DNA of 11,429 nucleotides from a virus. Below are positions 1-11,429 of the stretch, one piece after another (the stretch's first letter is position 1; each line of letters opens with the position of its first letter). The notes under the pieces were generated by a model. The model ran no database searches. It was not told the origin of the DNA and worked only from the letters and a program-made list of their open reading frames with translations. The stretch lies in the UHGV virus genome UHGV-1560016; one strand, written 5' to 3'. The position numbers and the translations under genes were made by a program.

Positions 1-1
1 T

Positions 2-238
2 GATGAAAAAGAACTTGATAATGCAATTAATAAAATCATCGTAACGTCGCTCTTTTCCTGTCTCAGCGACACTCAGCAAAAACAGTTCTACGAATCGGCT
101 TTCAACATGATCGAGCGTTGTTGTTTCTGCGATGCCGACGAGTTACCTGAAAAAATCAGGAAACAGTTGGCTGATGCTCTTCGAGTGCGACTTTCTGACC
201 AATTTTCTGAAATGTACTCTCCGAATTTGGACAAATAG
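2..238 (+). CDS. Hypothetical protein, 3' part only (5' end lies outside the window); reads ...NMIERCCFCDADELPEKIRKQLADALRVRLSDQFSEMYSPNLDK*
   Basis: Hand translation of frame 2 is open from the window edge to TAG at 236-238. It is absent from the ORF track, presumably because it is 5'-truncated with no long M-initiated stretch. It lies in AT-rich DNA and overlaps the antisense ORF 156-431 by 83 nt, so only one of the two may be real. Confidence 0.3.
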   Translation, partial: DEKELDNAINKIIVTSLFSCLSDTQQKQFYESAFNMIERCCFCDADELPEKIRKQLADALRVRLSDQFSEMYSPNLDK

Positions 239-431
239 AAAAAGGCCATTTCCATTCAGGGTCTGATGGAAATACTTCAGCCTGTTCCAAAGCACGGCGT
301 AAAGAGAACACAACTCCAGCCATAATCTGATGTTTCCCATTGGTCCAGCTATCGCCGCTCTGATCTACAGGGGCGGCTATGTCGTATGACCAAACGACTT
401 CACAGTTATTGTTTAAAATCTGGACTTTCAT
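156..431 (-). CDS. Hypothetical small protein (about 91 aa from the ATG at 431; the ORF track extends it to 473)
   Basis: ATG at 431-429 (minus) is preceded by AGGTG with a 6-nt spacing. It sits downstream of the leftward promoter at 558-585. No family recognised. Overlaps the + strand partial ORF at its 3' end and contains the inverted repeat 248-273. Confidence 0.4.
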   Translation of the reverse strand: MKVQILNNNCEVVWSYDIAAPVDQSGDSWTNGKHQIMAGVVFSLRRALEQAEVFPSDPEWKWPFSICPNSESTFQKIGQKVALEEHQPTVS

Positions 432-557
432 TTCATACACCTGCTTTAACATGAGTGCCTGGTGGCACAACATGACTCAACGAATCATCCTGGACTTCAT
501 ATGCCCCAGGCGGCTACTTCGTGGGCGTCCTGCCTGTTCGTTGTTTCGCTTGGGTAC

Positions 558-585
558 ATTATGTATCTCAAAGGTACATTGTCAA
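558..585 (-). promoter_or_regulatory. Candidate sigma70 promoter directing leftward transcription (PL-like): -35 TTGACA, 16-nt spacer, -10 CATAAT, overlapped by operator-like repeats
   Basis: Minus-strand TTGACA is the complement of 580-585 and CATAAT the complement of 558-563, with a 16-nt spacer (564-579). GGTACATT is directly repeated at 553-560 and 573-580. The palindrome TACAT-T-ATGTA at 555-565 overlaps the -10. Confidence 0.45.
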
Positions 586-586
586 G

Positions 587-613
587 TATAAAAAAACCTG
601 CCGAAGCAGGTTC
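587..613 (-). terminator. Intrinsic terminator of the repressor gene
   Basis: A 7-bp stem (595-601 AACCTGC pairing 606-612 GCAGGTT) with a 4-nt loop reads on the minus strand as stem, UUCG loop, stem, then a U-run (complement of the A-run at 590-596). It lies 11 nt downstream of the repressor stop at 625-627. Confidence 0.6.
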
Positions 614-624
614 ATAAACATTGA

Positions 625-1299
625 TTAGGCTTTGATTTTGTATCTTCTTGGTTTTCCTGAGAAAATCACTGTGCCAATTATAGAGCAATTACCGTTGATC
701 TTAATGTAAGGCTCAGGCCAGTTTGGGTTTAACGCTTTGAGATAACGCTGTGTCCCATCTTCTATCAACCTTTTGAAGGTGGTTTCGCCTGTATCGTGCA
801 TCAATGCAATAACGTCGTCACCGTGGCAGGCAGGTACTTCAGGATCGACAAAAATCATGTCTCCCGGGCGGTACTCATCAATCATTGAATCACCTATCAC
901 CCGCAAGATATAAGTCATTTCCCCACAGGGTACAGGGCAGGGATACGTTTCTGCTGTGCTCAAATCAACCTCAGAATATCCAACTTCTTTCCATGCTCCG
1001 GCCTGTACCCATGATATGACAGGGACTAATGTGATTTGTTTATTAGTGATTGAAACATCAGGTTTTTTTGTGATGTTCGTTGTCTGGTGTTCTTGATCGA
1101 GCCATCCGACAGGCAGGTCGAAACATTTTTCGATGTGTCGTGCCATGCTGTCACCGATATTTTTAGTAGCACCATCCCCCATAAACCTGCTGGTCTGGGT
1201 TGGCTCGCGATCAATCATAGTGGCAAAGGAAGAATTCCCGCCAACACCATCTCTCAGTTTTCTGGCGTTAGACCGCCGGATGTCATGGATTGTTTTCAT
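625..1299 (-). CDS. Phage CI/LexA-like repressor with C-terminal S24 autopeptidase domain (224 aa)
   Basis: The C-terminal half carries the S24 signature GDSM (IGDSMIDEY, nucleophile Ser) and a downstream KRL (TFKRLIEDG, general-base Lys), with LexA-like spacing. The N-terminal ~70 aa are basic and typical of a DNA-binding domain. It is divergent from a Cro-like gene and followed by its own terminator. The 224-aa size matches what I recall for e14 CohE (unverified). Confidence 0.88.
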   Translation of the reverse strand: MKTIHDIRRSNARKLRDGVGGNSSFATMIDREPTQTSRFMGDGATKNIGDSMARHIEKCFDLPVGWLDQEHQTTNITKKPDVSITNKQITLVPVISWVQAGAWKEVGYSEVDLSTAETYPCPVPCGEMTYILRVIGDSMIDEYRPGDMIFVDPEVPACHGDDVIALMHDTGETTFKRLIEDGTQRYLKALNPNWPEPYIKINGNCSIIGTVIFSGKPRRYKIKA

Positions 1300-1315
1300 A
1301 ACGAAATTAAAACCC

Positions 1316-1334
1316 TTGTACCGTTAAGGTACAA
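1316..1334. promoter_or_regulatory. Operator candidate: perfect 7-5-7 inverted repeat TTGTACC-GTTAA-GGTACAA
   Basis: The arms 1316-1322 and 1328-1334 are exact reverse complements. It lies 17 bp upstream of the repressor start codon in the divergent intergenic region. Confidence 0.5.
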
Positions 1335-1339
1335 GTATC

Positions 1340-1367
1340 TTGAAGGTTCATTTCAATCATGTAATAT
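1340..1367 (+). promoter_or_regulatory. Candidate rightward promoter (PR-like) for the Cro-like gene: -35 TTGAAG, 16-nt spacer, -10 TAATAT
   Basis: TTGAAG at 1340-1345 and TAATAT at 1362-1367 with a 16-nt spacer. GGAGG RBS at 1375-1379 and ATG at 1390. Confidence 0.45.
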
Positions 1368-1387
1368 GTACACCGGAGGTACATATT
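1363..1387. promoter_or_regulatory. Operator candidate: 9-7-9 perfect inverted repeat AATATGTAC-ACCGGAG-GTACATATT overlapping the -10 and RBS of the Cro-like gene
   Basis: The arms 1363-1371 and 1379-1387 are exact reverse complements (checked base by base). It shares the GTACA core with the repeats at 553-580 and 1316-1334. Confidence 0.55.
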
Positions 1388-1389
1388 GT

Positions 1390-1704
1390 ATGAAAGCGTA
1401 TTGGGACTCTTTAACCAAAGAACAGCAGGGCGAGTTGGCCGGAAAAGTTGGCTCAACACCTGGCTACTTACGGCTGGTTTTCAATGGCTATAAAAAAGCC
1501 AGTTTTGTGCTGGCTAAAAAACTTGAGCAATGCACGTCAGGTGCAATTACGAAATCTGACTTAAGACCGGATACCCGCCAGCAGGATGATCTGAACAGTC
1601 TGGATGAACTGCAAACGCTGGCGATTGATGTTGATTATCTCGAGCCCGGTAACGGGCCTGACGGCGATATCGAACATCACACCGAAATAACCCTTCCTTC
1701 CTGA
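1390..1704 (+). CDS. Cro/YdaS-like helix-turn-helix regulator (104 aa) with an acidic C-terminal extension
   Basis: ATG at 1390 with GGAGG 10 nt upstream. The N-terminal segment LAGKVGSTPGYLRLVFNGYKKASFVLAKKLEQCTSG resembles phage Cro/YdaS-type HTH proteins. It is divergent from the repressor. The longer track ORF 1087-1704 overlaps the repressor antisense and is not the true start. Confidence 0.7.
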   Translation: MKAYWDSLTKEQQGELAGKVGSTPGYLRLVFNGYKKASFVLAKKLEQCTSGAITKSDLRPDTRQQDDLNSLDELQTLAIDVDYLEPGNGPDGDIEHHTEITLPS

Positions 1705-1875
1705 GGATCCTCATGTTTGTCAAACCTGTTAAAGGGCGTTCCTGACCCTGCCCGCGGCGACCTTTTGCCCGCCGAAGGGCGAAATGTTGACGAGAACAAC
1801 TACTGGCTGCGCCGTGAAGTAGCGGGTGATATCCGGCGCGTGAATAAAAAGGTGAATACCGATGACGAGCTTTAA
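1705..1875 (+). other. Start-less open frame (56 codons) ending at a TAA that overlaps the sheath start; possible 3' remnant of the ancestral gene preceding the sheath gene
   Basis: Frame 1 is open from just after the Cro-like TGA (1702-1704) to TAA at 1873-1875 with no ATG. The only candidate start is TTG at 1717 with no RBS. Its stop overlaps the sheath ATG (1862) in the manner of translationally coupled phage genes. Confidence 0.25.
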
Positions 1876-3355
1876 CACCATTCCGTCGAATACGCTGGTT
1901 CCGCTGTTTTATGCGGAAATGGATAATCAGGCGGCGAATACTGCACAGGACAGCGGAGCATCGCTGCTGATTGGTCATGCCAATAACGGTGCAGAGATTG
2001 TTGCCAACAGTCTGGTACTGATGCCGTCGGCAGACTATGCACGCCAGATTTGTGGTGCGGGAAGTCAGCTGGCGCGTATGGTCGAGGCTTATCGCCAGAC
2101 CGACCCGTTTGGCGAGCTATATGTGATTGCCGTTCCTGAATCCACGGGCGCGGCGGCAACGGTTACGCTGACGGTGACCGGCGCGGCAACCGAAACCGGC
2201 ACGGTGAATGTTTATGTGGGACGTACCCGCGTGCAGGCACCGGTGACCAACGGCGATAACGTTGCGACGATTGCCAGCAGTATCCAGGATGCCATCAATG
2301 CCGTTCCGACCCTGCCGTTTACTGCCTCATCTTCGGCAGGCGTGGTCACACTGACCGCGCGTCATAAGGGGCTTTGCGGGAATGAAATTCCTGTCAGCCT
2401 CAATTACTACGGCTTTGGTGGGGGCGAAGTGCTGCCAGCGGGCGTACAGATTGCCGTGGCGACGGGTACCGCCGGAACGGGCGCTCCGGTTCTCACCGGC
2501 GCGGTGGCTGCAATGGCGGATGAGCCGTTTGATTATATCGGCCTGCCGTTCAACGACACAGCCTCCGTTAACACGCTGGTGACCGAGATGAACGATACCA
2601 GCGGTCGCTGGAGCTATGCGCGTCAGCTGTATGGTCATGTGTATACGGCAAAGATCGGCACGCTGTCAGAACTGGTGACCGCAGGTGACCAGTTTAACCA
2701 GCAGCACATTACCCTGGCGGGATACGAAAAAGAGACCCAGACGCCTGCCGACGAGCTGGCGGCAAGCCGTACCGCCCGCGCAGCGGTGTTTATCCGCAAC
2801 GATCCGGCACGTCCCACGCAGACCGGTGAGCTGGTGGGTATGCTGCCTGCGCCGAAGGGGAAACGGTTCACGATGACCGAACAACAGACCCTGCTGTCTC
2901 ATGGCGTGGCAACGGCGTGTGTCGAAAGCGGGGTGCTGCGCATTCAGCGTGATGTCACCACGTACAGGAAAAACGCTTACGGTGTTGCGGATAACAGCTA
3001 CCTCGACAGCGAGACGCTGCATACCAGCGCGTATGTGCTGCGCAAACTGAAATCCGTCATTACCAGTAAGTACGGGCGTCACAAGCTTGCCAGCGACGGT
3101 ACCCGCTTTGGTCCCGGTCAGGCGATTGTCACACCGGCGGTGATCAAAGGGGAACTGCTGGCAACCTACCGTCAGCTTGAGCGTGCGGGGATCGTGGAAA
3201 ACTACGAACTGTTTAAGCAGTACCTGGTTGTGGAGCGTGATGCCAGCGATCCGAACCGCCTGAACACGCTGTTCCCGCCTGACTATGTTAACCAGTTGCG
3301 TGTCTTTGCCGTGGTTAACCAGTTCCGTCTTCAGTATTCAGAGGAGTCTGCATAA
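1862..3355 (+). CDS. Contractile tail sheath protein (Mu gpL-like, 497 aa)
   Basis: A 497-aa ORF immediately upstream of, and coupled to, a 118-aa tube gene (TAATG overlap at 3353-3357), followed by chaperone and tape measure genes. This is the size and order of myovirus sheath genes. GAGGAG RBS for the next gene is embedded in its 3' end. Confidence 0.85.
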   Translation: MTSFNTIPSNTLVPLFYAEMDNQAANTAQDSGASLLIGHANNGAEIVANSLVLMPSADYARQICGAGSQLARMVEAYRQTDPFGELYVIAVPESTGAAATVTLTVTGAATETGTVNVYVGRTRVQAPVTNGDNVATIASSIQDAINAVPTLPFTASSSAGVVTLTARHKGLCGNEIPVSLNYYGFGGGEVLPAGVQIAVATGTAGTGAPVLTGAVAAMADEPFDYIGLPFNDTASVNTLVTEMNDTSGRWSYARQLYGHVYTAKIGTLSELVTAGDQFNQQHITLAGYEKETQTPADELAASRTARAAVFIRNDPARPTQTGELVGMLPAPKGKRFTMTEQQTLLSHGVATACVESGVLRIQRDVTTYRKNAYGVADNSYLDSETLHTSAYVLRKLKSVITSKYGRHKLASDGTRFGPGQAIVTPAVIKGELLATYRQLERAGIVENYELFKQYLVVERDASDPNRLNTLFPPDYVNQLRVFAVVNQFRLQYSEESA

Positions 3356-3711
3356 TGGCCCGTATCGGGGGAACCTGTTATTTCAAAATTGACGGTCAGC
3401 AGCTATCGCTGACCGGCGGCATTGAGGTGCCCATGAACAGGACGGTCAATGATGACATCATCGGCCTGGACGGTTCAGTGGACCGCAAGGAAACTCACCG
3501 TGCGCCCTATGTCAAAGGGACCTTCAAGGTGCCGAAGAATTTTCCGGTGAACAAAATCACCTCGTCTGATGAGATGACCATCACTGCCGAGCTGGCGAAC
3601 GGTCAGGTCTATGTACTGTCGTCTGCCTGGCTGCACGGCGAAGCGAACCATAATGCCGAAGAAGGCACGGTTGATCTTGAGTTCCACGGTGAAGAAGGGG
3701 ATTACCAGTGA
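3355..3711 (+). CDS. Tail tube protein (Mu gpM-like, 118 aa)
   Basis: ATG at 3355 overlaps the sheath stop, with GAGGAG 8 nt upstream. Size and position between sheath and chaperone/tape measure fit a tube protein. Confidence 0.82.
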   Translation: MARIGGTCYFKIDGQQLSLTGGIEVPMNRTVNDDIIGLDGSVDRKETHRAPYVKGTFKVPKNFPVNKITSSDEMTITAELANGQVYVLSSAWLHGEANHNAEEGTVDLEFHGEEGDYQ

Positions 3712-4031
3712 TTGAGCTTGTACTTAAAAAACCGATCATCGCCCACAAAGAAACACTGCATGTGCTGGAAATACGTGAGCCTACGTATGACGAGATTGAG
3801 GCGCTGGGGTTCCCTTTCTCTGTTTCACCTGATGGTGGTATGAAAATGGACAGTCAGGTAGCGCTGAAATATATCCCGCTTCTGGCCGGGATCCCGCGCT
3901 CGTCTGCAGCGCAGATGACGAAGCTGGATATTTTCAAGGCAGGCATGATTGTAATGCGTTTTTTTACCGGCTTGGAGACGGAAGAGACCTCCGGAAGCGA
4001 TTCTACAATGTCGCGTGGTTCTGGAAATTAA
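3708..4031 (+). CDS. Tail assembly chaperone, short form (107 aa, GTG start)
   Basis: GTG at 3708 overlaps the tube TGA (GTGA). It sits between tube and tape measure and contains a T7 slippery run leading into a -1 frame extension. Confidence 0.72.
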   Translation: MIELVLKKPIIAHKETLHVLEIREPTYDEIEALGFPFSVSPDGGMKMDSQVALKYIPLLAGIPRSSAAQMTKLDIFKAGMIVMRFFTGLETEETSGSDSTMSRGSGN

Positions 4032-4123
4032 ACCCCCTTGAACTTCGCCGGACGGCTATTTCCCACTTTGCTGATCTGGAGGCAGAGGCCGTCCGTATAA
4101 ATGAGGAGATGAAGCATGGCTGA
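3708..4123 (+). CDS. Tail assembly chaperone, long form made by programmed -1 frameshift at TTTTTTT (3959-3965); predicted about 139 aa
   Basis: Zero-frame codons cgT-TTT-TTT-acc give a T_TTT_TTT heptamer. The -1 frame is open from 3833 (after TGA at 3830-3832) to TGA at 4121-4123, which overlaps the tape-measure ATG (4116). This is the G/GT-type arrangement conserved in tailed phages. Confidence 0.6.
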
Positions 4124-6023
4124 TAATTTTCAGCTGAAAGCCATCATCACCGCCGTTGACAGGCTGTCCGGCCCGCTTAAAGGTATGCAGCGTCAGCTTA
4201 AGGGGTTTCAGAAAGAAGTCTCCAGCCTTGCTCTGGGCGCTGCCGGGGCGGGTACTGCAATAATGGGGGCACTGGCACTCCCTGTAAAATCAGCCATCAC
4301 CCTTGAATCGAAGATGGCTGATGTCCGCAAAGTGGTAGACGGTCTGGATACGCCGGATGCGTTTAAGGCCATGACGGAGCAGGTACGCGCTTTGTCTACT
4401 GAGCTTCCCATGTCTGCAGACGGGATCGCGGAAATTGTGGCGGCTGGCGGTCAGGCCGGGATTGCACGTGATGAACTGATGCAGTTTGCCACTGATGCGG
4501 TGAAGATGGGCGTGGCCTTTGATACCACGGCTGAAGAGTCCGGGCAGATGATGGCCCAGTGGCGTACTGCGTTTAATATGACGCAGGATGAAGTGGCCGG
4601 GCTGGCTGACAAAATCAACTACCTTGGTAATACCGGCCCGGCGAATGCGAAGAAAATCTCCGATATTGTTACGCGTATTGGTCCTTTAGGTGGTGTTGCA
4701 GGTGTGGCTTCCGGCGAAATCGCGGCAATGGGGGCAACCATTGCCGGGATGGGCGTGGAGTCAGAAATTGCCGCCACAGGGATCAAGAACTTCATGCTTT
4801 CCCTGACCGCGGGAAATTCCGCGACAAAATCGCAGAAACAGGCATTACGTTTTCTGCGGATCAATCCGAAGAAATTAGCTGCTGATATGCAGAAAGATGC
4901 CCGGGGAACCATGCTGTCTGTACTGGATGCGATGGCTAAAGTGCCCAAAGAAAAACAGGCAGCTGTGCTGAATGCCCTGTTCGGGAAAGAGTCTCTGGGC
5001 GCGATAGCACCTCTGCTGACTAACCTTGATTTGTTGCGTACCAACTTCAGGCGGGTTGCGGATTCCCAGCAGTATGGCAGTTCGATGCAGAAGGAATATG
5101 CTTCGAGGGCAGCGACGACGGAAAACCAGCTTTTACTTCTGCAAAATCAACTTGATGCCATTTCTTCCACGCTGGGGGAAACGTTTCTTCCTGAGGTTAA
5201 TGATGGTCTTGAAGAGGTAAAACCGCTCCTTGAGGAAGTGAGAACGTTTGTCCGTGAAAACCCGGAGCTCGTTAAGACCATTGCTAAAATCGGTCTGGCC
5301 TTACTGACGGTGGGAGCCGCTGCAGGCTCTTTGTCCAGAATTATGAAAGTTCTCGGCGGTGTGATGAATATGACGCCTGCTAAGGGGCTGATTGCTCTTC
5401 TGGTTGGTGGCGCTTACCTCATTATTGATAACTGGGAAACCGTAGGTCCTGTCATAAAAAAAGTCTGGCACGTGGTGGATGAAACGGCGCAGGCGATGGG
5501 GGGATGGGAAACTGTTCTGAAAGCGATTGCCCTGTTTATGGCAACCAAATGGGTTGCTGACGTTACCAAATCCATTACCGCAGTGACCAGAGAGATGCGT
5601 ACGCTGGGGAAGGTATCGGCAGAAACGGGATTGATGGGGAAAGGCCGCGGCTTTATCGGGAAGGCCGGGGTATATGGTTTTCTGGGAACCCTGATGTATG
5701 AGCCGGTTAAAGATACTCTGGAAAGTGTTGTTCCTGAAGATACGGTTAACTGGCTGGATAATAAAGGGCTGTTTCTGGCTTCAGACTGGACGCCTTTTTT
5801 TGATCGTAAAGAGTACGAGCAGTATCAGGCCAGCCTGAGTCAGTACAAACCCAATGTTCCGCTGTTGAATCCATCTTCTTCCATGACACAGCACAGCGAG
5901 CTGAAAGTCACGTTCGAGAATGCTCCGCCAGGTATGAAGATAATTGATGTACCGGGCAAAGCCGATCCCCTGATGAAAATCACGCACGATGTGGGGTATT
6001 CCCCTTTTCGTTTTCCACGATAA
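4116..6023 (+). CDS. Tail tape measure protein (635 aa)
   Basis: Largest ORF in the operon, directly after the frameshifted chaperone pair. It has Gly/Ala-rich hydrophobic segments (e.g. LALGAAGAGTAIMGALALPV, GPLGGVAGVASGEIAAMGATIAGMGV) typical of tape measure proteins. Confidence 0.88.
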   Translation: MADNFQLKAIITAVDRLSGPLKGMQRQLKGFQKEVSSLALGAAGAGTAIMGALALPVKSAITLESKMADVRKVVDGLDTPDAFKAMTEQVRALSTELPMSADGIAEIVAAGGQAGIARDELMQFATDAVKMGVAFDTTAEESGQMMAQWRTAFNMTQDEVAGLADKINYLGNTGPANAKKISDIVTRIGPLGGVAGVASGEIAAMGATIAGMGVESEIAATGIKNFMLSLTAGNSATKSQKQALRFLRINPKKLAADMQKDARGTMLSVLDAMAKVPKEKQAAVLNALFGKESLGAIAPLLTNLDLLRTNFRRVADSQQYGSSMQKEYASRAATTENQLLLLQNQLDAISSTLGETFLPEVNDGLEEVKPLLEEVRTFVRENPELVKTIAKIGLALLTVGAAAGSLSRIMKVLGGVMNMTPAKGLIALLVGGAYLIIDNWETVGPVIKKVWHVVDETAQAMGGWETVLKAIALFMATKWVADVTKSITAVTREMRTLGKVSAETGLMGKGRGFIGKAGVYGFLGTLMYEPVKDTLESVVPEDTVNWLDNKGLFLASDWTPFFDRKEYEQYQASLSQYKPNVPLLNPSSSMTQHSELKVTFENAPPGMKIIDVPGKADPLMKITHDVGYSPFRFPR

Positions 6024-6047
6024 CGCAGTCCTTTTTGAGGTCAGTCT

Positions 6048-7424
6048 ATGGATTTATCCTCATTTCCCACCCGACCTTCATTACTTTCGTCGTCTTCAGG
6101 CTGGCGTGACAGACTTCAGGACGCGTCATTTCGCGGCGTGCCGTTTAAGGTTGAAGAAGAAAGTGCGGGAACCGGTCGCCGTGTGGAAACACATGAATAC
6201 CCGAACCGCGACAAACCCTATACCGAAGACCTGGGGAAAATCACTTTTCGCTCGTCCATCACGGCTTATGTGGTGGGAGATGACTGCTTTGACCAGCGCG
6301 ATCGCCTGATTGACGCGCTGAATAAACCCGGTCCCGGCACGCTTGTCCATCCGACATACGGTGAGCTGAAAGTCTGTGTTGACGGAGAAGTTCGGGTCAG
6401 CACATCGAAGAGTGAAGGGCGTATTGTCCGCTTTGACCTGAAGTTTGTCGAAGCGGGAGAACTCTCTTACCCCACTTCAGGTGCGGCGACGGCGCAGACG
6501 CTGATGTCATCCTGTTCTGCACTGGATGACTGCATCAGTGACAGCTTCAGAGGTTTCAGTATCGATGGCGTGGCGGATTTCGTGCAGAACGACGTCGTTG
6601 GTAATGTCAGCACAATGCTTGGGTATGTTTCTGATGCGATGAAAGTGGTGGATTCTGCCGTATCGGATGCTGCCAGGCTGTTGCAGGGGGATATCTCGGT
6701 ACTTCTGCCGCCACCATCGTCAGGCAAAAATCTCGTTGAGCAGGTGCAGAAAATGTGGCGTACCGGGAAACGCCTTTATGGTAACGCCAGCGACCTGGTC
6801 ACCATGATCAAAACGCTTTCCGGTGTCAGCCTCGGCAGCGATCTGCAACCGCGCGGCGTCTGGAAAACGGACAGTAAAACCACCGCCACGGCTACGCAGC
6901 AGCGTAATGTGGTTGCCAGCACCCTTCGTACGACCGCAATCAGTGAAGCGGCGTATGCCGTCACCCGATTGCCTGCGCCAACAACTTCCGCGGTGATGCA
7001 GAATTCCGCAGTGGGGCAGGCAACAACACCTGCGCAGAGCACTGGCTGGCCTTCCGTCACGCATCCGGCACTGAACAATGCACCGGCGGTGAAAAACACG
7101 GTTGACCTGCCGACGTGGGAAGAACTGACTGACATTCGCGACACACTGAATACGGCAATTGATAAGGAGTTGTCCCGTACAACCAGTGATGCGCTGTTTC
7201 TGGCGCTGCGCCGGGTGAAAGCAGATCTGAATGCGGATATCAACACGCGCCTTGAACAGTCTGCACGGATCATTCAGCGCACACCGGATGAGGTTTTACC
7301 CGCGCTGGTGCTGGCGGCGACCTGGTTTGATAACGCGGCGCGTGACGCGGACATTATCCGGCGTAATGCCATTACGCATCCCGGCTTTGTGCCGGTGATC
7401 CCTCTGAAGGTGCCAGTGCAATGA
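6048..7424 (+). CDS. Mu gp43/N-like protein (DNA circularization protein N family; baseplate hub component), 458 aa
   Basis: ATG at 6048 with GAGG 7 nt upstream. The N-terminal region (FRGVPFKVEEE...GRRVETHEYPNRDKPYTEDLG) matches my recollection of the DNA_circ_N domain of Mu N-like proteins. Position right after the tape measure fits. Confidence 0.75.
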   Translation: MDLSSFPTRPSLLSSSSGWRDRLQDASFRGVPFKVEEESAGTGRRVETHEYPNRDKPYTEDLGKITFRSSITAYVVGDDCFDQRDRLIDALNKPGPGTLVHPTYGELKVCVDGEVRVSTSKSEGRIVRFDLKFVEAGELSYPTSGAATAQTLMSSCSALDDCISDSFRGFSIDGVADFVQNDVVGNVSTMLGYVSDAMKVVDSAVSDAARLLQGDISVLLPPPSSGKNLVEQVQKMWRTGKRLYGNASDLVTMIKTLSGVSLGSDLQPRGVWKTDSKTTATATQQRNVVASTLRTTAISEAAYAVTRLPAPTTSAVMQNSAVGQATTPAQSTGWPSVTHPALNNAPAVKNTVDLPTWEELTDIRDTLNTAIDKELSRTTSDALFLALRRVKADLNADINTRLEQSARIIQRTPDEVLPALVLAATWFDNAARDADIIRRNAITHPGFVPVIPLKVPVQ

Positions 7425-8500
7425 ACGACAATGTCACGCTACGGGTAAATGGCCGGGAGTGGAATGGCTGGACATCGGTGCGCATCGGTGCCGGTATTGA
7501 ACGGCTGGCGCGGGATTTCAGTGTGGAGATCACCCGCCAGTGGCCGGGAGATGAGGGTATCACCACGCTTCAGCCGCGCATTAGAAACGGTTCAAAAGTG
7601 GAAGTGCTGATTGGTGATGAGCTGGTGATCACCGGCTGGGTGGAGGCGACTCCCGTTCGTTACGATGCCCGTTCGGTCAGCACCGGTATTGCCGGACGTA
7701 GTCTGACGGCTGACCTGATTGACTGTGCAGCCGAACCGACACAGTTTAACGGACGCTCGCTGGTGCAGATTGCGCAGGCGCTTGCTGCGCCTTTCGGCAT
7801 TGAGGTGGTGAACAGCGGTGCGCCGTCGGGTGTTATTCCTGATGTTCAGCCTGATCACGGTGAAACGGTGATTGAGGTAATCAACAAAATACTCGGTCAG
7901 CAGCAGGCACTGGCTTACGACGACCCGCACGGCAGGCTGGTGATTGGCGGTATTGGCTCAACGCGGGCACATACCGCGCTGGTACTTGGGGAAAACATCC
8001 TTTCCTGCGATACGGAGAAGAGTATCCGGGAGCGGTTTTCTGTTTACCAGGTGGCGGGGCAGCGTGCCGGAAACGACGATGATTTCGGTGAGGCCACCAC
8101 CACCGCGCTGCGGGCCCGCACAGAGGACGCATTTATTGCCCGTTACCGTCCGATGTATATCAGGCAGACAGGGCAGGCCACGGGGGCAGGCTGTATTGCG
8201 CGTGCTGACTTTGAAGCCCGACAACGGGCGGCGCGGACGGATGAAACCACTTATGTGGTGCAGGGCTGGCGACAGGGTAACGGTACGCTGTGGCAGCCCA
8301 ACCAGCGGGTGATTGTCTTCGATCCGGTCTGTAGTTTCGACAATACCGAACTGCTTGTTTCGGAAGTCACGTTTACTCAGGACCAGAACGGCACCCTGAC
8401 GGAAATCCGTGTCGGCCCGCCTGATGCTTATCTGCCTGAACCCGAAGATCCCGGCGTGCGGAAAAAGAAAAAAGCCAGAGTACAGGAGGACCCGTTCTGA
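7421..8500 (+). CDS. Baseplate hub protein (Mu gp44/P-like), 359 aa
   Basis: ATG overlaps the stop of the preceding gene (ATGA at 7421-7424). Size and position between the N-like and spike genes fit the Mu-like order. Confidence 0.75.
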   Translation: MNDNVTLRVNGREWNGWTSVRIGAGIERLARDFSVEITRQWPGDEGITTLQPRIRNGSKVEVLIGDELVITGWVEATPVRYDARSVSTGIAGRSLTADLIDCAAEPTQFNGRSLVQIAQALAAPFGIEVVNSGAPSGVIPDVQPDHGETVIEVINKILGQQQALAYDDPHGRLVIGGIGSTRAHTALVLGENILSCDTEKSIRERFSVYQVAGQRAGNDDDFGEATTTALRARTEDAFIARYRPMYIRQTGQATGAGCIARADFEARQRAARTDETTYVVQGWRQGNGTLWQPNQRVIVFDPVCSFDNTELLVSEVTFTQDQNGTLTEIRVGPPDAYLPEPEDPGVRKKKKARVQEDPF

Positions 8501-9048
8501 TGAGGGCGATTGAAGCCATGCAGCGACAACTCCTCGGCCTGATTGGGCGGGCAGTGGTGAAAAGCATCAGTGCCGCCACGAAATGTCAGACCGTGGATGT
8601 GTCCCTGATTGCCGGTGAACCCAAAGCCGGGGTTGAACATCTTGAACCCTACGGTTTTACCGCAAGGGCAAACAGCGGTGCGGAAGCGGTGGTGTTGTTT
8701 CCGGATGGCGACCGTTCTCATGCGGTGGTTGTTACGGTGTCGGACCGGCGCTACCGCCTGAAAGGGCTGCAGACGGGTGAGGTGGCTGTCTATGACGATC
8801 AGGGGCAGTCCGTGACGCTGGCCCGGGAGGGGATCGTGGTGGACGGTGCAGGTAAAACGATCACGTTTCGCAATGCGCCTAAGGCACGTTTTGAAATGGA
8901 CCTGGAAGTGACCGGACAGGTGAAAGACCTGTGCGACTCCACCGGCACCACCATGTCAGCGATGCGGCTTGCCTATAACGGGCATCGTCACAGAGAGAAC
9001 GGTCAGGGCAGTAACACCGACAAACCTGATAAAGCGATGGAGGCATGA
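8500..9048 (+). CDS. Baseplate central spike / assembly protein V-like (Mu gp45-like), 182 aa
   Basis: TGATG overlap with the upstream gene and AGGAGG at 8484-8489. Size and position fit gp45/gpV-type spike proteins. Confidence 0.75.
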   Translation: MRAIEAMQRQLLGLIGRAVVKSISAATKCQTVDVSLIAGEPKAGVEHLEPYGFTARANSGAEAVVLFPDGDRSHAVVVTVSDRRYRLKGLQTGEVAVYDDQGQSVTLAREGIVVDGAGKTITFRNAPKARFEMDLEVTGQVKDLCDSTGTTMSAMRLAYNGHRHRENGQGSNTDKPDKAMEA

Positions 9049-9473
9049 TGGAACTGTGGCTGACGGTGAACGGTAAACGCACCTGCGCCAGCGCACAACT
9101 GGATCCGCTGACCCGCGCCGTGGTGATTTCCCTGTTTACCTGGCGGCGGGCGGAGCCTGATGACAACGCCGACGTCCCGATGGGATGGTGGGGGGATACC
9201 TGGCCTGCGGTACAGAATGACCGTTACGGCTCCCGACTGTGGCTGCTTCAGCGCAGCAAACTGACCAATCAGCTGGTGCAGACGGTAAGGGGGTATATCC
9301 GCGAATGCCTGCAATGGATGATTGATGACGGCGTGGTGTCCCGTATTGATCTGGATATCCGCCGCACCGGGATTAATGAACTGGGTAACAGTATCACTCT
9401 CTGGCGTCGTGACGGACCGGTAATGATTTCTTTTGATGATCTGTGGAGTGCGATAACGCATGGCGGACAGTGA
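9045..9473 (+). CDS. Baseplate protein of the GP46 family (Mu gp46-like, T4 gp25-like wedge), 142 aa
   Basis: ATGATG start overlaps the upstream stop (start may be 9045 or 9048), with GGAGG at 9039-9043. Size and order fit. Confidence 0.75.
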   Translation: MMELWLTVNGKRTCASAQLDPLTRAVVISLFTWRRAEPDDNADVPMGWWGDTWPAVQNDRYGSRLWLLQRSKLTNQLVQTVRGYIRECLQWMIDDGVVSRIDLDIRRTGINELGNSITLWRRDGPVMISFDDLWSAITHGGQ

Positions 9474-10518
9474 ATTTCAGCGCCCGACGCTGGCAGAAAA
9501 TATCAGTATGCTCCGTAACGATTTATTCGCCAGGCTGGACGTCAGCGACACGCTCCGGCGCATGGATGAAGACGTGCGGGCAAAGGTGTATGCGGCGGCG
9601 CTGCATACGGTTTACGGGTACATCGATTATCTGGCAATGAACATGCTGCCTGACCTGTGCGATGAGTCCTGGCTGGCGCGACATGCTGCGATGAAACGGT
9701 GTCCGCGCAAGGGGGCCACGGCTGCCAGCGGGTATATGCGCTGGGAAGGTGTCAGCGATGGCCTGAAGGTGACCGCCGGGAGTGTTATTCAGCGCGATGA
9801 CCTGGTTCAGTACACGGCAACTGCCGATGCAACCAGCTCCGGTGGTGTCCTGCGCGTGCCGATCGCCTGCTCAAGTTCAGGCGCGGTCGGTAACGCTGAC
9901 GACGGTACGTCATTAATCCTGGTCACGCCGGTGAATGGTCTGCCGTCTTCCGGTGTGGCTGACACCCTGACAGGCGGATTTGATACTGAAGATCTGGAAA
10001 CGTGGCGCGCCCGCATCATTGAGCGGTATTACTGGACGCCGCAGGGCGGGGCTGACGTGGACTATGTCGTCTGGGCTAAAGAAGTGCCCGGCATTACCCG
10101 CGCATGGACATACCGTCACTGGATGGGAACGGGAACTGTCGGTGTGATGATTGCCAGCAGTGACCTGATTAATCCCATTCCGGAAGAATCAACGGAAACG
10201 GCGGCAAGACAACACATTGAGCCACTGGCCCCGGTGGCAGGCTCTGATTTGTATGTATTCAGGCCGGTGGCGCATAAAGTGGATTTTCATATCCGCGTGA
10301 CGCCGGACACACCGGAAATACGGGCTGCCATCACCGCCGAGTTGCGTTCGTTCCTGCTGCGTGATGGTTATCCGCAGGGAGAACTGAAGGTATCGCGTAT
10401 CAGTGAGGCGATTTCCGGTGCGAACGGGGAATACAGCCATCAGTTGCTTGCCCCGGCGGACAATATCTCCATTGCAAAAAATGAACTGGCGGTTCTGGGG
10501 ACGATTTCATGGACGTGA
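9460..10518 (+). CDS. Baseplate J-like protein (Mu gp47-like), 352 aa
   Basis: Start overlaps the upstream gene by 14 nt. Size and order match baseplate J-family proteins in Mu-like and P2-like tails. Confidence 0.8.
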
Positions 10519-11093
10519 CAAACGATGATTACATCCGCCTGTTATCGGCACTGTTGCCGCCCGGTCCTGCATGGTCAGCCAGCGATCCGGCGATTGCCGG
10601 TGCGGCACCTTCATTAACCCGCGTTCATCAGCGTGCGGATGCCCTGATGCGGGAGCTGGATCCGCGCACCACCACTGAACTGATAAACCGCTGGGAGCGT
10701 CTGTGCGGTCTGCCGGATGAATGTATTCCCGCAGGGACACAGACCCTTCGCCAGCGTCAGCAACGACTGGATGCGAAGGTTAACCTGGCGGGCGGCATCA
10801 ACGAGGATTTTTACCTTGCACAGCTTGCTGCCCTGGGCAGACCAGACGCTACCATCACGCGATACGACAAAAGCACGTTCACCTGCTCATCGGCCTGTAC
10901 TGACGCGGTGAATGCGCCGGAATGGCGGTATTACTGGCAGGTCAACATGCCAGCCGCCACCAACACCACCTGGATGACATGTGGCGATCCCTGTGATTCC
11001 GCACTGCGTATCTGGGGCGACACCGTTGTCGAGTGCGTGCTTAACAAACTCTGCCCGTCGCATACCTACGTAATTTTTAAATATCCGGAGTAA
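10509..11093 (+). CDS. Baseplate/tail protein, Mu gp48-like (DUF2313/YmfQ-like), 194 aa
   Basis: Start overlaps the upstream gene by 10 nt. Size and position (after baseplate J, before tail fibre) fit. Confidence 0.75.
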
Positions 11094-11096
11094 TCC

Positions 11097-11429
11097 ATGC
11101 ATCGTATAGACACGAAAACCGCGCAGAAGGATAAGTTCGGCGCGGGTAAGAACGGTTTTACCCGTGGTAACCCCCAGACTGGCACGCCTGCCACCGATCT
11201 GGATGATGACTACTTTGACATGTTGCAGGAAGAACTTTGTAGCGTGGTGGAGGCATCCGGTGCCAGTCTGGAGAAGGCGCGGCACGACCAGCTGCTTACC
11301 GCGCTTCGTGCGCTGCTGTTAAGCCGCAAGAATCCGTTTGGCGATATCAAATCGGATGGCACGGTGAAAACGGCTCTCGAAAACCTTGGTTTGGGAGAAG
11401 CCAGATATATCATTCAGCGAGGAGCTAAT
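11097..11429 (+). CDS. Tail fibre protein, N-terminal part only (3' end lies outside the window)
   Basis: ATG at 11097 with GGAG at 11087-11090. The frame is open for 111 codons to the window end. It follows the gp48-like gene, where Mu-like and P2-like modules place the fibre gene. Confidence 0.7.

Follow-up and report, generated by a model that had tools for sequence, protein, structure and literature searches.

Several described systems bear on the window analyzed here, the whole 11,429-nucleotide stretch of the virus genome UHGV-1560016, and on the element that it carries, a set of phage tail genes lying behind a prophage repressor. The closest are an intact prophage at the thrW-proA site of Escherichia coli, called D1 below, and the phages SfV, SfI, SfII, ST64B, and phiP27. 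Gene order and sequence are shared with these, and the repressor, cro-like gene, tail terminator, DUF2635, sheath, tube, chaperone, tape measure, and Mu-like baseplate are near-identical to those of D1. The source prophage is of the type that combines an HK97-like head with a Mu-like contractile tail. Phage Mu itself has the same three-gene order in its genes 37 (K, the terminator), 38, and 39 (L, the sheath), although its 37/38 and 38/39 pairs overlap, whereas in the window the terminator stop and the DUF2635 start lie 8 nt apart.

Two further groups are related in part. The e14 element of E. coli K-12 and its reduced variants at icd have the same ymfK/ymfT immunity genes as the window. However, K-12 e14 retains an intact ymfT-ymfL join, while the window is placed at the thrW-proA site instead, by comparison with contig L003 and D1, and has its tail module whole. 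Contigs L007 to L009 and L016 lie at icd, carry Pin recombinase and McrA-like HNH genes, and have deletions that start at the same ymfT site as in the window. The R-type tailocins of Pseudomonas (R-syringacin and the cluster of P. fluorescens Q8r1-96, EU982300) resemble the window in having tail-only content under a repressor and a DUF2635 homologue directly 5' of the sheath gene, but they retain a full-length terminator homologue, a holin, and a lysozyme, all three of which the window element has lost. The published description of SfV/Mu-derived syringacins in Pseudomonas agrees with the content of the benchmark cluster (PMC4542187).

How does the window relate to these systems? It is very probably a recent deletion derivative of an SfV/e14-type E. 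coli temperate prophage, a decaying remnant in which a conspicuous palindrome is native and the DUF2635 gene is frameshifted. Compared with D1, it is without 18,905 bp, from ymfT codon 61 to terminator codon 143, and its DUF2635 frame is shifted. A remnant of this kind is a known kind of element, and the main interest of the locus is that its breakpoint is recurrent and bound to a motif.

The Deletion Junction and the Chimeric Reading Frame

A first-pass annotation, made from the sequence alone, had proposed a deletion or fusion junction at a 12-bp palindrome that ends a Cro-like reading frame, where base composition was said to change exactly. A large deletion does exist, but alignment to complete prophages locates it at a GATA at 1570-1573, 130 bp upstream of the palindrome (Table 1). 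Base by base, the ymfT parent in D1 matches the window through 1573 and the terminator parent matches it from 1570. The GATA overlap sits within a looser similarity (CTGACTtAAGACcgGATA versus CTGACTgAAGAC--GATA), and both parental sites lie in the one D1 prophage, 18,905 bp apart. The D1 ymfK-ymfT immunity region matches window 1-1573 at 100% identity, and from 1570 to 11400 a 5-bp gap and one single-nucleotide polymorphism (SNP) at 8581 are all that separates the window from the D1 tail region. Because these are the only differences, the 18.9-kb deletion appears to be very recent. The composition step is found at 1570 rather than at the palindrome: GC content is 0.44 over 1-1569 and 0.56 over 1570-11429, and the short interval 1570-1704 is already at 0.52. 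A megablast search of window 1300-2300 against 5,426 complete E. coli genomes gave a concordant picture, with about 1,900 genomes matching only from query position 257 (window 1556) on, in genes annotated as phage tail terminator, DUF2635 domain-containing protein, and phage tail sheath.

The reading frame that spans the junction is a chimera. Its first 61 residues appear to be Cro/YdaS-like, as had been suggested, and are identical to RefSeq ymfT, a YdaS family gene divergent from ymfK. Its last 43 codons belong to the tail terminator, and it is here, rather than in the open frame downstream where the first-pass annotation had looked for it, that a gpK-like stub is found. Intact YmfT has 66 residues (...LRPDIYPKD), of which the chimera matches 1-61; the tail that follows (TRQQDD...ITLPS) is the C terminus of the D1 terminator. 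PHROG matches divide the protein in the same way, with phrog_35 on residues 1-64 and phrog_5122 on residues 60-103. The Cro/YdaS helix-turn-helix family PF15943 scores 20.1 bits, below its cutoff of 30. The terminator domain PF23840 occupies residues 3-135 of the 186-residue D1 protein, which has a weak Pfam Gp37 match as well; the window keeps only residues 144-186, and no PF23840 match was found in the 104-residue chimeric frame.

The 18.9 kb missing from the window hold about 30 genes in D1. Among them are ymfL, ash, replication and regulatory genes, rusA, kilA-N, DUF968, the Q antiterminator, and a DNA methyltransferase. Also within the lost segment are the holin, the endolysin (GH24), an Rz1-like gene, LysC, an HNH endonuclease, the terminase, portal, protease, and capsid genes, and the head-completion genes. 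A single illegitimate recombination, joining ...CCGGATA at the ymfT 3' end to ...GACGATA near the terminator 3' end, would account for the arrangement. It would have taken out the early, replication, lysis, and head genes together and left an in-frame YmfT'-'terminator frame, so that all sequence past 1574 would be native phage DNA. Later, and in the window's lineage only, a 5-bp deletion would have frameshifted DUF2635.

The immunity region has some features of its own. Operator-like inverted repeats with a GGTACA/TGTACC core (CTTGTACCGTTAAGGTACAAG; ATGTACACCGGAGGTACAT) occupy 1315-1335 and 1366-1385 in the gap separating the repressor gene from the cro-like gene, which is divergent from it, and occur a further time upstream, at 553-580. 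A promoter scan of 1200-2000 gave no consensus sigma-70 site. In the shared tail sequence, position 8581 (in the baseplate gene region) is A in the window and G in D1 and in contigs L003 to L005, and contig L006 also differs from the window there.

Table 1. Coordinates of the features discussed; a slash within a sequence marks the point of breakage
Feature	Position	Strand	Basis or remark
ymfK-type LexA/S24 prophage repressor, 224 aa, intact	625-1299	-	Pfam PF00717, E=1.5e-26; 100% identity to D1 ymfK (LexA family protein)
Chimeric ORF, 104 aa: YmfT (Cro/YdaS-like) 1-61 plus last 43 terminator residues, in frame	1390-1704	+	Translation, parental sequences, PHROG
ymfT site, ...GACCGGATA/TCTATCCG; continues here as /CCC	1564-1579		D1 equivalents in L011 (reverse strand); L015 9001-9070; L016/L017 6001-6459
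Deletion junction, 4-bp GATA microhomology	1570-1573	+	Base-by-base comparison with both D1 parental sites; also in L003-L010
Tail-terminator 3' stub (Mu gpK/gp37 equivalent) with own TGA at 1702-1704	1574-1704	+	Identical to D1 and ECCHD184
12-bp palindrome TGAGGATCCTCA	1702-1713	+	Terminator TGA, GAGGA Shine-Dalgarno (1703-1707), 5-nt spacer, A of DUF2635 ATG
DUF2635 5' part: ATG plus 9 codons (MFVKPVKGRS), then premature TGA from frameshift	1713-1745	+	Translation compared with intact gene MFVKPVKGRSVPDPARG
5-bp deletion site, GGTCA or GTCAG (placement ambiguous by one G)	1737-1739	+	Alignments to D1 and ECCHD184
Rest of DUF2635 frame (open frame of the first-pass annotation, open from 1705); in-frame TTG at 1717	1717-1875	+	PF10948, PHROG 208
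Tail sheath gene, intact, 497 aa, own AAGGTGA ribosome site, start overlapping DUF2635 stop by 14 nt	1862-3355	+	ORF list; Pfam domains in sister contig; equal length in D1

The Palindrome and the DUF2635 Gene

The palindrome that drew attention to the locus was correctly described: the TGA that closes the chimeric frame and the GGATCC (BamHI) site at 1705 both lie inside a perfect 12-bp palindrome. Its significance appears to be slight. The intact E. coli prophages D1 and ECCHD184 have the same 12 bp and both flanks in identical form, and the same spacer in a full-length context is the very finding that the first-pass annotation had named as counting against its own proposal. Four perfect 12-bp palindromes occur in the window, compared with 2.8 +/- 1.6 in mononucleotide shuffles, 31% of which reach four; BamHI sites also number four. 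In SfV the corresponding join, TGAGAATCTTCATG, keeps the layout of stop, spacer, and start with neither the palindrome nor the BamHI site. The suggestion that the palindrome might recur at module junctions is set aside on these two grounds, the chance rate and the lack of conservation in SfV. A functional RNA structure is likewise set aside, since folding energies around the palindrome fall within the range of shuffled sequences and an Rfam scan of 1200-2100 returned no match. On comparison of sequences, then, the palindrome reads as an ordinary join of two tail genes (stop, ribosome-binding site, and start) and as incidental rather than as a breakpoint.

What is the open frame that follows it? 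As reported, an open stretch in frame 1 spans 1705-1872, up to a TAA (1873-1875) that overlaps the sheath ATG, the overlap with the sheath frame amounting to 14 nt. It had been called startless. Nevertheless, an ATG begins within the palindrome, at 1713 and 5 nt past GAGGA, but in another frame, where it is halted after 10 codons by the TGA at 1743-1745; the open stretch itself has an in-frame TTG at 1717. In D1 and ECCHD184, the ATG after GAGGA opens a DUF2635 gene of 55 to 56 residues (MFVKPVKGRSVPDPARGDLLPAEGRNVDENNYWLRREVAGDIRRVNKKVNTDDEL) whose stop overlaps the sheath start. When the five missing bases are put back in silico, the full 55-residue DUF2635 protein is exactly restored. A similarity search of the frame against phage proteins, which the first-pass annotation had recommended, matches PHROG 208 (E=4.5e-25) and Pfam PF10948. 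The restored protein scores 57.4 bits over profile positions 1-45, and the frame from TTG 1717 scores 44.4 bits over positions 8-45 (gathering cutoff, 26.6 bits). The annotation had the frame as the 3' stub of a gpK-like gene that once preceded the sheath. A gene does precede the sheath, but it appears to be a complete DUF2635 gene, homologous to Mu gp38, broken by a frameshift of minus five.

DUF2635 homologues are found at the same position in SfV (orf10, annotated as "similar to phage Mu GP38"), SfI, SfII, ST64B, phiP27, Mu (gene 38), and the Pseudomonas tail-only cluster. The window's version is 96% identical to SfV orf10 and 38.5% identical to Mu gp38. In D1, ECCHD184, SfV, Mu, and EU982300 alike, the gene lies 3' of the tail terminator and directly 5' of the sheath, which it overlaps. 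AF083977 annotates Mu gp38 as "putative sheath terminator," without evidence; a literature search on the name DUF2635 returned no papers, and a PDB sequence search gave only a spurious coiled-coil match (E=1.1). Retention of DUF2635 in the Pseudomonas tail-only cluster suggests, by analogy, a role in tail assembly rather than in joining the head.

The consequences of the frameshift can be predicted. Ribosomes starting at ATG 1713 would stop at 1743-1745, 117 nt short of the sheath start. Given this early stop, the native coupling of termination to reinitiation across the 14-nt overlap would be lost, and the sheath would rely on its own AAGGTGA site. DUF2635 would be inactivated, and the element as a whole would be a decaying remnant without a function of its own.

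Distribution and Order of Events

Neither the 5,426 complete E. coli genomes nor the species-representative genomes contain the exact junction. The exact 104-residue fusion protein is, however, encoded on at least 16 public contigs, and an allelic fusion is found in an NCBI isolate protein (EEV6091117.1; P0002), with a diverged tail allele that has three substitutions in the terminator part. Contigs L003 to L005 run from int through ymfK and the fusion to an intact DUF2635 and a full tail module, and the flank of L003 is 100% E. coli. The junction occurs with an intact DUF2635 in L010 too. L006 is essentially the window's own contig, and no DUF2635 was called on it. The 5-bp deletion is confined to the window and L006; it is present in none of the seven other junction contigs and in none of the 848 complete genomes that carry the DUF2635 gene. 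Differences between the window and L006 at 8581 and beyond 11401 mark the two as separate assemblies. At icd, L007 to L009 carry an additional deletion that runs from the DUF2635 3' end into the tail-fiber assembly genes.

These comparisons set the order of events: from the intact prophage, through the 18.9-kb deletion, to either the 5-bp frameshift (in the window's lineage) or loss of the tail module (in other lineages). The large deletion is placed before the frameshift because junction contigs L003 to L005 and L010 keep DUF2635 intact and none of the 848 complete genomes is shifted.

Several further observations concern these contigs. On L007 (about 10470) and L008 (about 3930), at the equivalent of window position 1856 or so, an independent second junction, ...AAAAAGGTGAAC/AGAAGCACAG, leads to a tail-fiber assembly remnant and leaves a 58-residue DUF2635 variant; it is not at a TA motif. 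Inside the tail-fiber gene at 11381-11401, contigs that are otherwise identical (L003 to L006 and D1) diverge after AAAACCTTGGTTTGGGAGAAG into three unrelated sequences, which looks like the crossover of a Pin-type inversion with at least three alternative fiber C termini. Anti-phage defense genes stand at the edges of some remnants: an annotated Dsr1 beside the integrase in SCEC020001 (L015 340-4167), a YobI-ATPase Pfam match beside an e14-type integrase (L007 2726-6367), and GmrSD Pfam matches beside a Pin fragment (L017 10496-12385).

A Recurrent Breakpoint

The left side of the junction is not peculiar to the window. A survey based on proteins and seeded on two genes, ymfT and rusA, found dozens of E. 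coli proteins that consist of exact YmfT 1-61 followed by unrelated tails, often with the Pfam domains of downstream phage genes (RusA, DUF968, Q, methyltransferase, capsid, GP46, and tail-fiber assembly). After de-duplication, about 56 distinct tails begin at residues 61/62, against one or two per codon elsewhere in the visible range. D61 is followed in every case by I, T, N, K, M, S, or R, all of them residues with A-initial codons (if S and R are AGY and AGR), and the conserved DNA thus appears to extend through ...CCGGATA. One apparent tail, ILSLIHI (P0046, from Logan contigs), was discarded as untrimmed read-through of the Nextera mosaic-end adapter CTGTCTCTTATACACATC. Eighteen tails could be mapped to D1. 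All are same-strand deletions, of 0.34 to 29.5 kb, with a left parent compatible with an end at GGATA or GGATATC, and no inversions were seen among the mapped junctions. Microhomology at these junctions is 1 to 9 nt, with a mean of 3.7 as against 0.67 by chance. In the complete genome SCEC020001, ymfT switches at GGATA into the lom/tail-fiber region, and the YmfT-GP46 fusion was met in 28 collection blocks, on contigs of up to 333 kb.

A second hot spot was predicted and then found at rusA. Protein P0135 has the terminator tail seen in the window, here following RusA 1-69, and rusA of D1 reads ...CTCCGGATA/ACCGG at the break. About 48 distinct RusA fusions break at codon 69, against at most three per codon elsewhere, and several right-hand partners are common to the RusA and YmfT sets. 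A third site, GGACCGGTTA/TCCCGG, serves as both a left and a right partner. Of 34 mapped partner sites, 31 have T at -1 and 33 have A at 0. The side that is retained has C at +2 in 25 of the 34 against a background of 0.31 (p=6e-7), and there are weaker signals for G at -4, C at +3, and G at +4. The preference can be seen within one prophage strand as well: of its 42 GGATA sites, 6 of the 17 with C at +2 were used and none of the other 25 (Fisher p=0.002).

Could ordinary short-homology illegitimate recombination explain this pattern? The microhomology at the junctions is alike. The hot-spot breaks differ in being nucleotide-precise, in recurring at a defined motif, and in constraining the retained partner side, and the C at +2 is not predicted by end-annealing alone. 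That the deletions run in one direction can be explained by selection for retention of the repressor, but the exactness of their breakpoints to the nucleotide cannot. Some YmfT-X junctions could be two-step products in which RusA-X formed first and ymfT then recombined with rusA at a 7-bp repeat. It is possible, though on balance somewhat doubtful, that the junction at 1570-1573 arose through a deletion process that is directed by sequence and works on SfV/e14/lambdoid E. coli prophages at (C)CGG-W-TA/N-CC(G) sites. The proposal, tentative in all its parts, is that sites in ymfT (codon 61), in rusA (codon 69 and a second position), and in the DUF968, methyltransferase, capsid, terminator, and GP46 genes recombine with one another, precisely to the nucleotide, and that the process would repeatedly carve immunity-retaining remnants from intact prophages. 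The 18.9-kb deletion itself very probably belongs to a class of deletions that recur at CCGG-W-TA/N-CC-like sites in these prophages.

A nuclease, resolvase, or topoisomerase with a site preference is conceivable as the agent. RusA cleaves 5' of CC, and the prophage's own RusA is a lead only. The same holds for gyrase or a REP-like sequence (CCGGATAA), for which the text of the Topo-Seq paper gives no core motif to compare. Other candidates were rejected. An AAG protospacer-adjacent motif does lie 5' of the site, but Cas3 of a CRISPR system would be expected to degrade the retained side. By inspection, the ymfT site is unlike the pix-like sequence at 11381-11401 with its AAACC-TT-GGTTT core, which argues against a quasi-site for a Pin/Hin invertase. 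Adjacent deletion mediated by an insertion sequence (IS) is disfavored in that no IS remains at any junction. Restriction of the EcoRV or BsaBI type (GATATC or GATNNNNATC) fails on two counts: a GAT^ATC cut loses the terminal A that P0043 needs, and neither site is present at rusA. RAYT transposases cut at CT beside GTAG-flanked hairpins, a preference unlike the hot-spot motif. Nor does the pattern look like an artifact. Assembly chimeras are contradicted by microhomology of at most 9 nt, far under an assembler k-mer, and by cases in complete genomes and on contigs of more than 4 Mb. As for ascertainment bias, breaks at YmfT codons 45-60 would score 93 to 127 bits and would be listed, yet about 6 were seen against about 56 at codons 61/62.

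Alternative Explanations

The original proposal, in which the palindrome with its BamHI site is a deletion or engineering junction and the open frame the 3' stub of a gpK-like gene, is scarcely credible. The palindrome does coincide with a stop codon and GC content does climb across the region, but the same 12 bp and flanks are present in full-length prophages, late-region homology begins at 1570 rather than 1702, 2.8 such palindromes are expected in the window by chance, and the frame is a gp38-like gene complete but for 5 bp. If the gene is DUF2635, might its changed frame be functional, through programmed frameshifting or the TTG start? The TTG lies 9 nt past GAGGA, in frame with the open stretch, and its 52-residue product would still match PF10948. 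That product, however, would have MSNLLKG in place of the N-terminal motif (hydrophobic-K-P-x-x-G-R/K-x-V/I-x-DP) common to the SfV, Mu, and Pseudomonas homologues; most initiations would probably fall to the stronger ATG, which lies 4 nt upstream, and the gene is unshifted in 848 of 848 complete genomes and in every junction-bearing contig other than the two carriers. Functional recoding is highly improbable on this evidence. An error of assembly or sequencing, with the gene intact in the organism, is unlikely too. Both carriers are short-read metagenome assemblies, but loss of 5 bp outside a homopolymer is untypical of errors, and two assemblies carry it that differ at SNP 8581 and in the tail-fiber cassette after 11401.

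A further alternative is that the element is a domesticated R-type tailocin, in which the deletion put the tail operon behind an SOS-controlled early promoter so that DNA damage would yield killing particles. The repressor has its S24 self-cleavage domain intact, the tail genes from the sheath to the Mu gp48 homologue are all full length, the head and replication genes are gone (all were within the deleted 18.9 kb), the junction is found in several samples, and SfV/Mu-like tails have been co-opted likewise in Pseudomonas. Against this, the terminator is cut to its 43 C-terminal residues, while the Pseudomonas cluster retains both DUF2635 and a full-length terminator homologue (Orf9, 29% identity, E=5e-28), and in Mu the terminator caps the tube and sheath (PMC11915804). 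The holin, endolysin, and Rz1-like genes were in the deleted part, and the D1 arms that are retained have no annotated lytic gene (the window's downstream side lies outside the view). One SNP against D1 in 9.8 kb leaves no time for selection, and relatives proceed to lose DUF2635 (the window) or the entire tail module (L007 to L009). The tailocin interpretation is consequently very unlikely, and a decaying SfV/e14-type prophage is very probably the better reading, preferred because of the one-SNP divergence from an intact prophage and because relatives are still losing genes. Some points do weigh against decay as described here. TTG 1717 could yield a product that still scores as DUF2635, which makes loss of function a prediction; the window and L006 are metagenome assemblies, so that the 5-bp deletion could in principle be an error common to related data sets; and Mu gp38 is not resolved in the cryo-electron microscopy structure of the Mu virion (PMC11915804).

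Implications

Overall, the flagged locus is an example of a false breakpoint signal produced by a short palindrome, a restriction site, and an open frame. Taken alone, the feature appears ordinary, a native gene join and a pseudogenized small gene within a prophage remnant. Set beside its relatives, the locus offers a dated series of steps in prophage decay, from the intact D1 through the 18.9-kb deletion to the frameshift or the loss of the tail module. The recurrent breakpoint has the wider reach. If the sequence-directed process is real, e14-like cryptic elements would arise in a semi-programmed way and not through random decay. If a specific enzyme or DNA structure drives the hot spot, it would account for the origin of e14-type elements and would make prophage domestication experimentally tractable.

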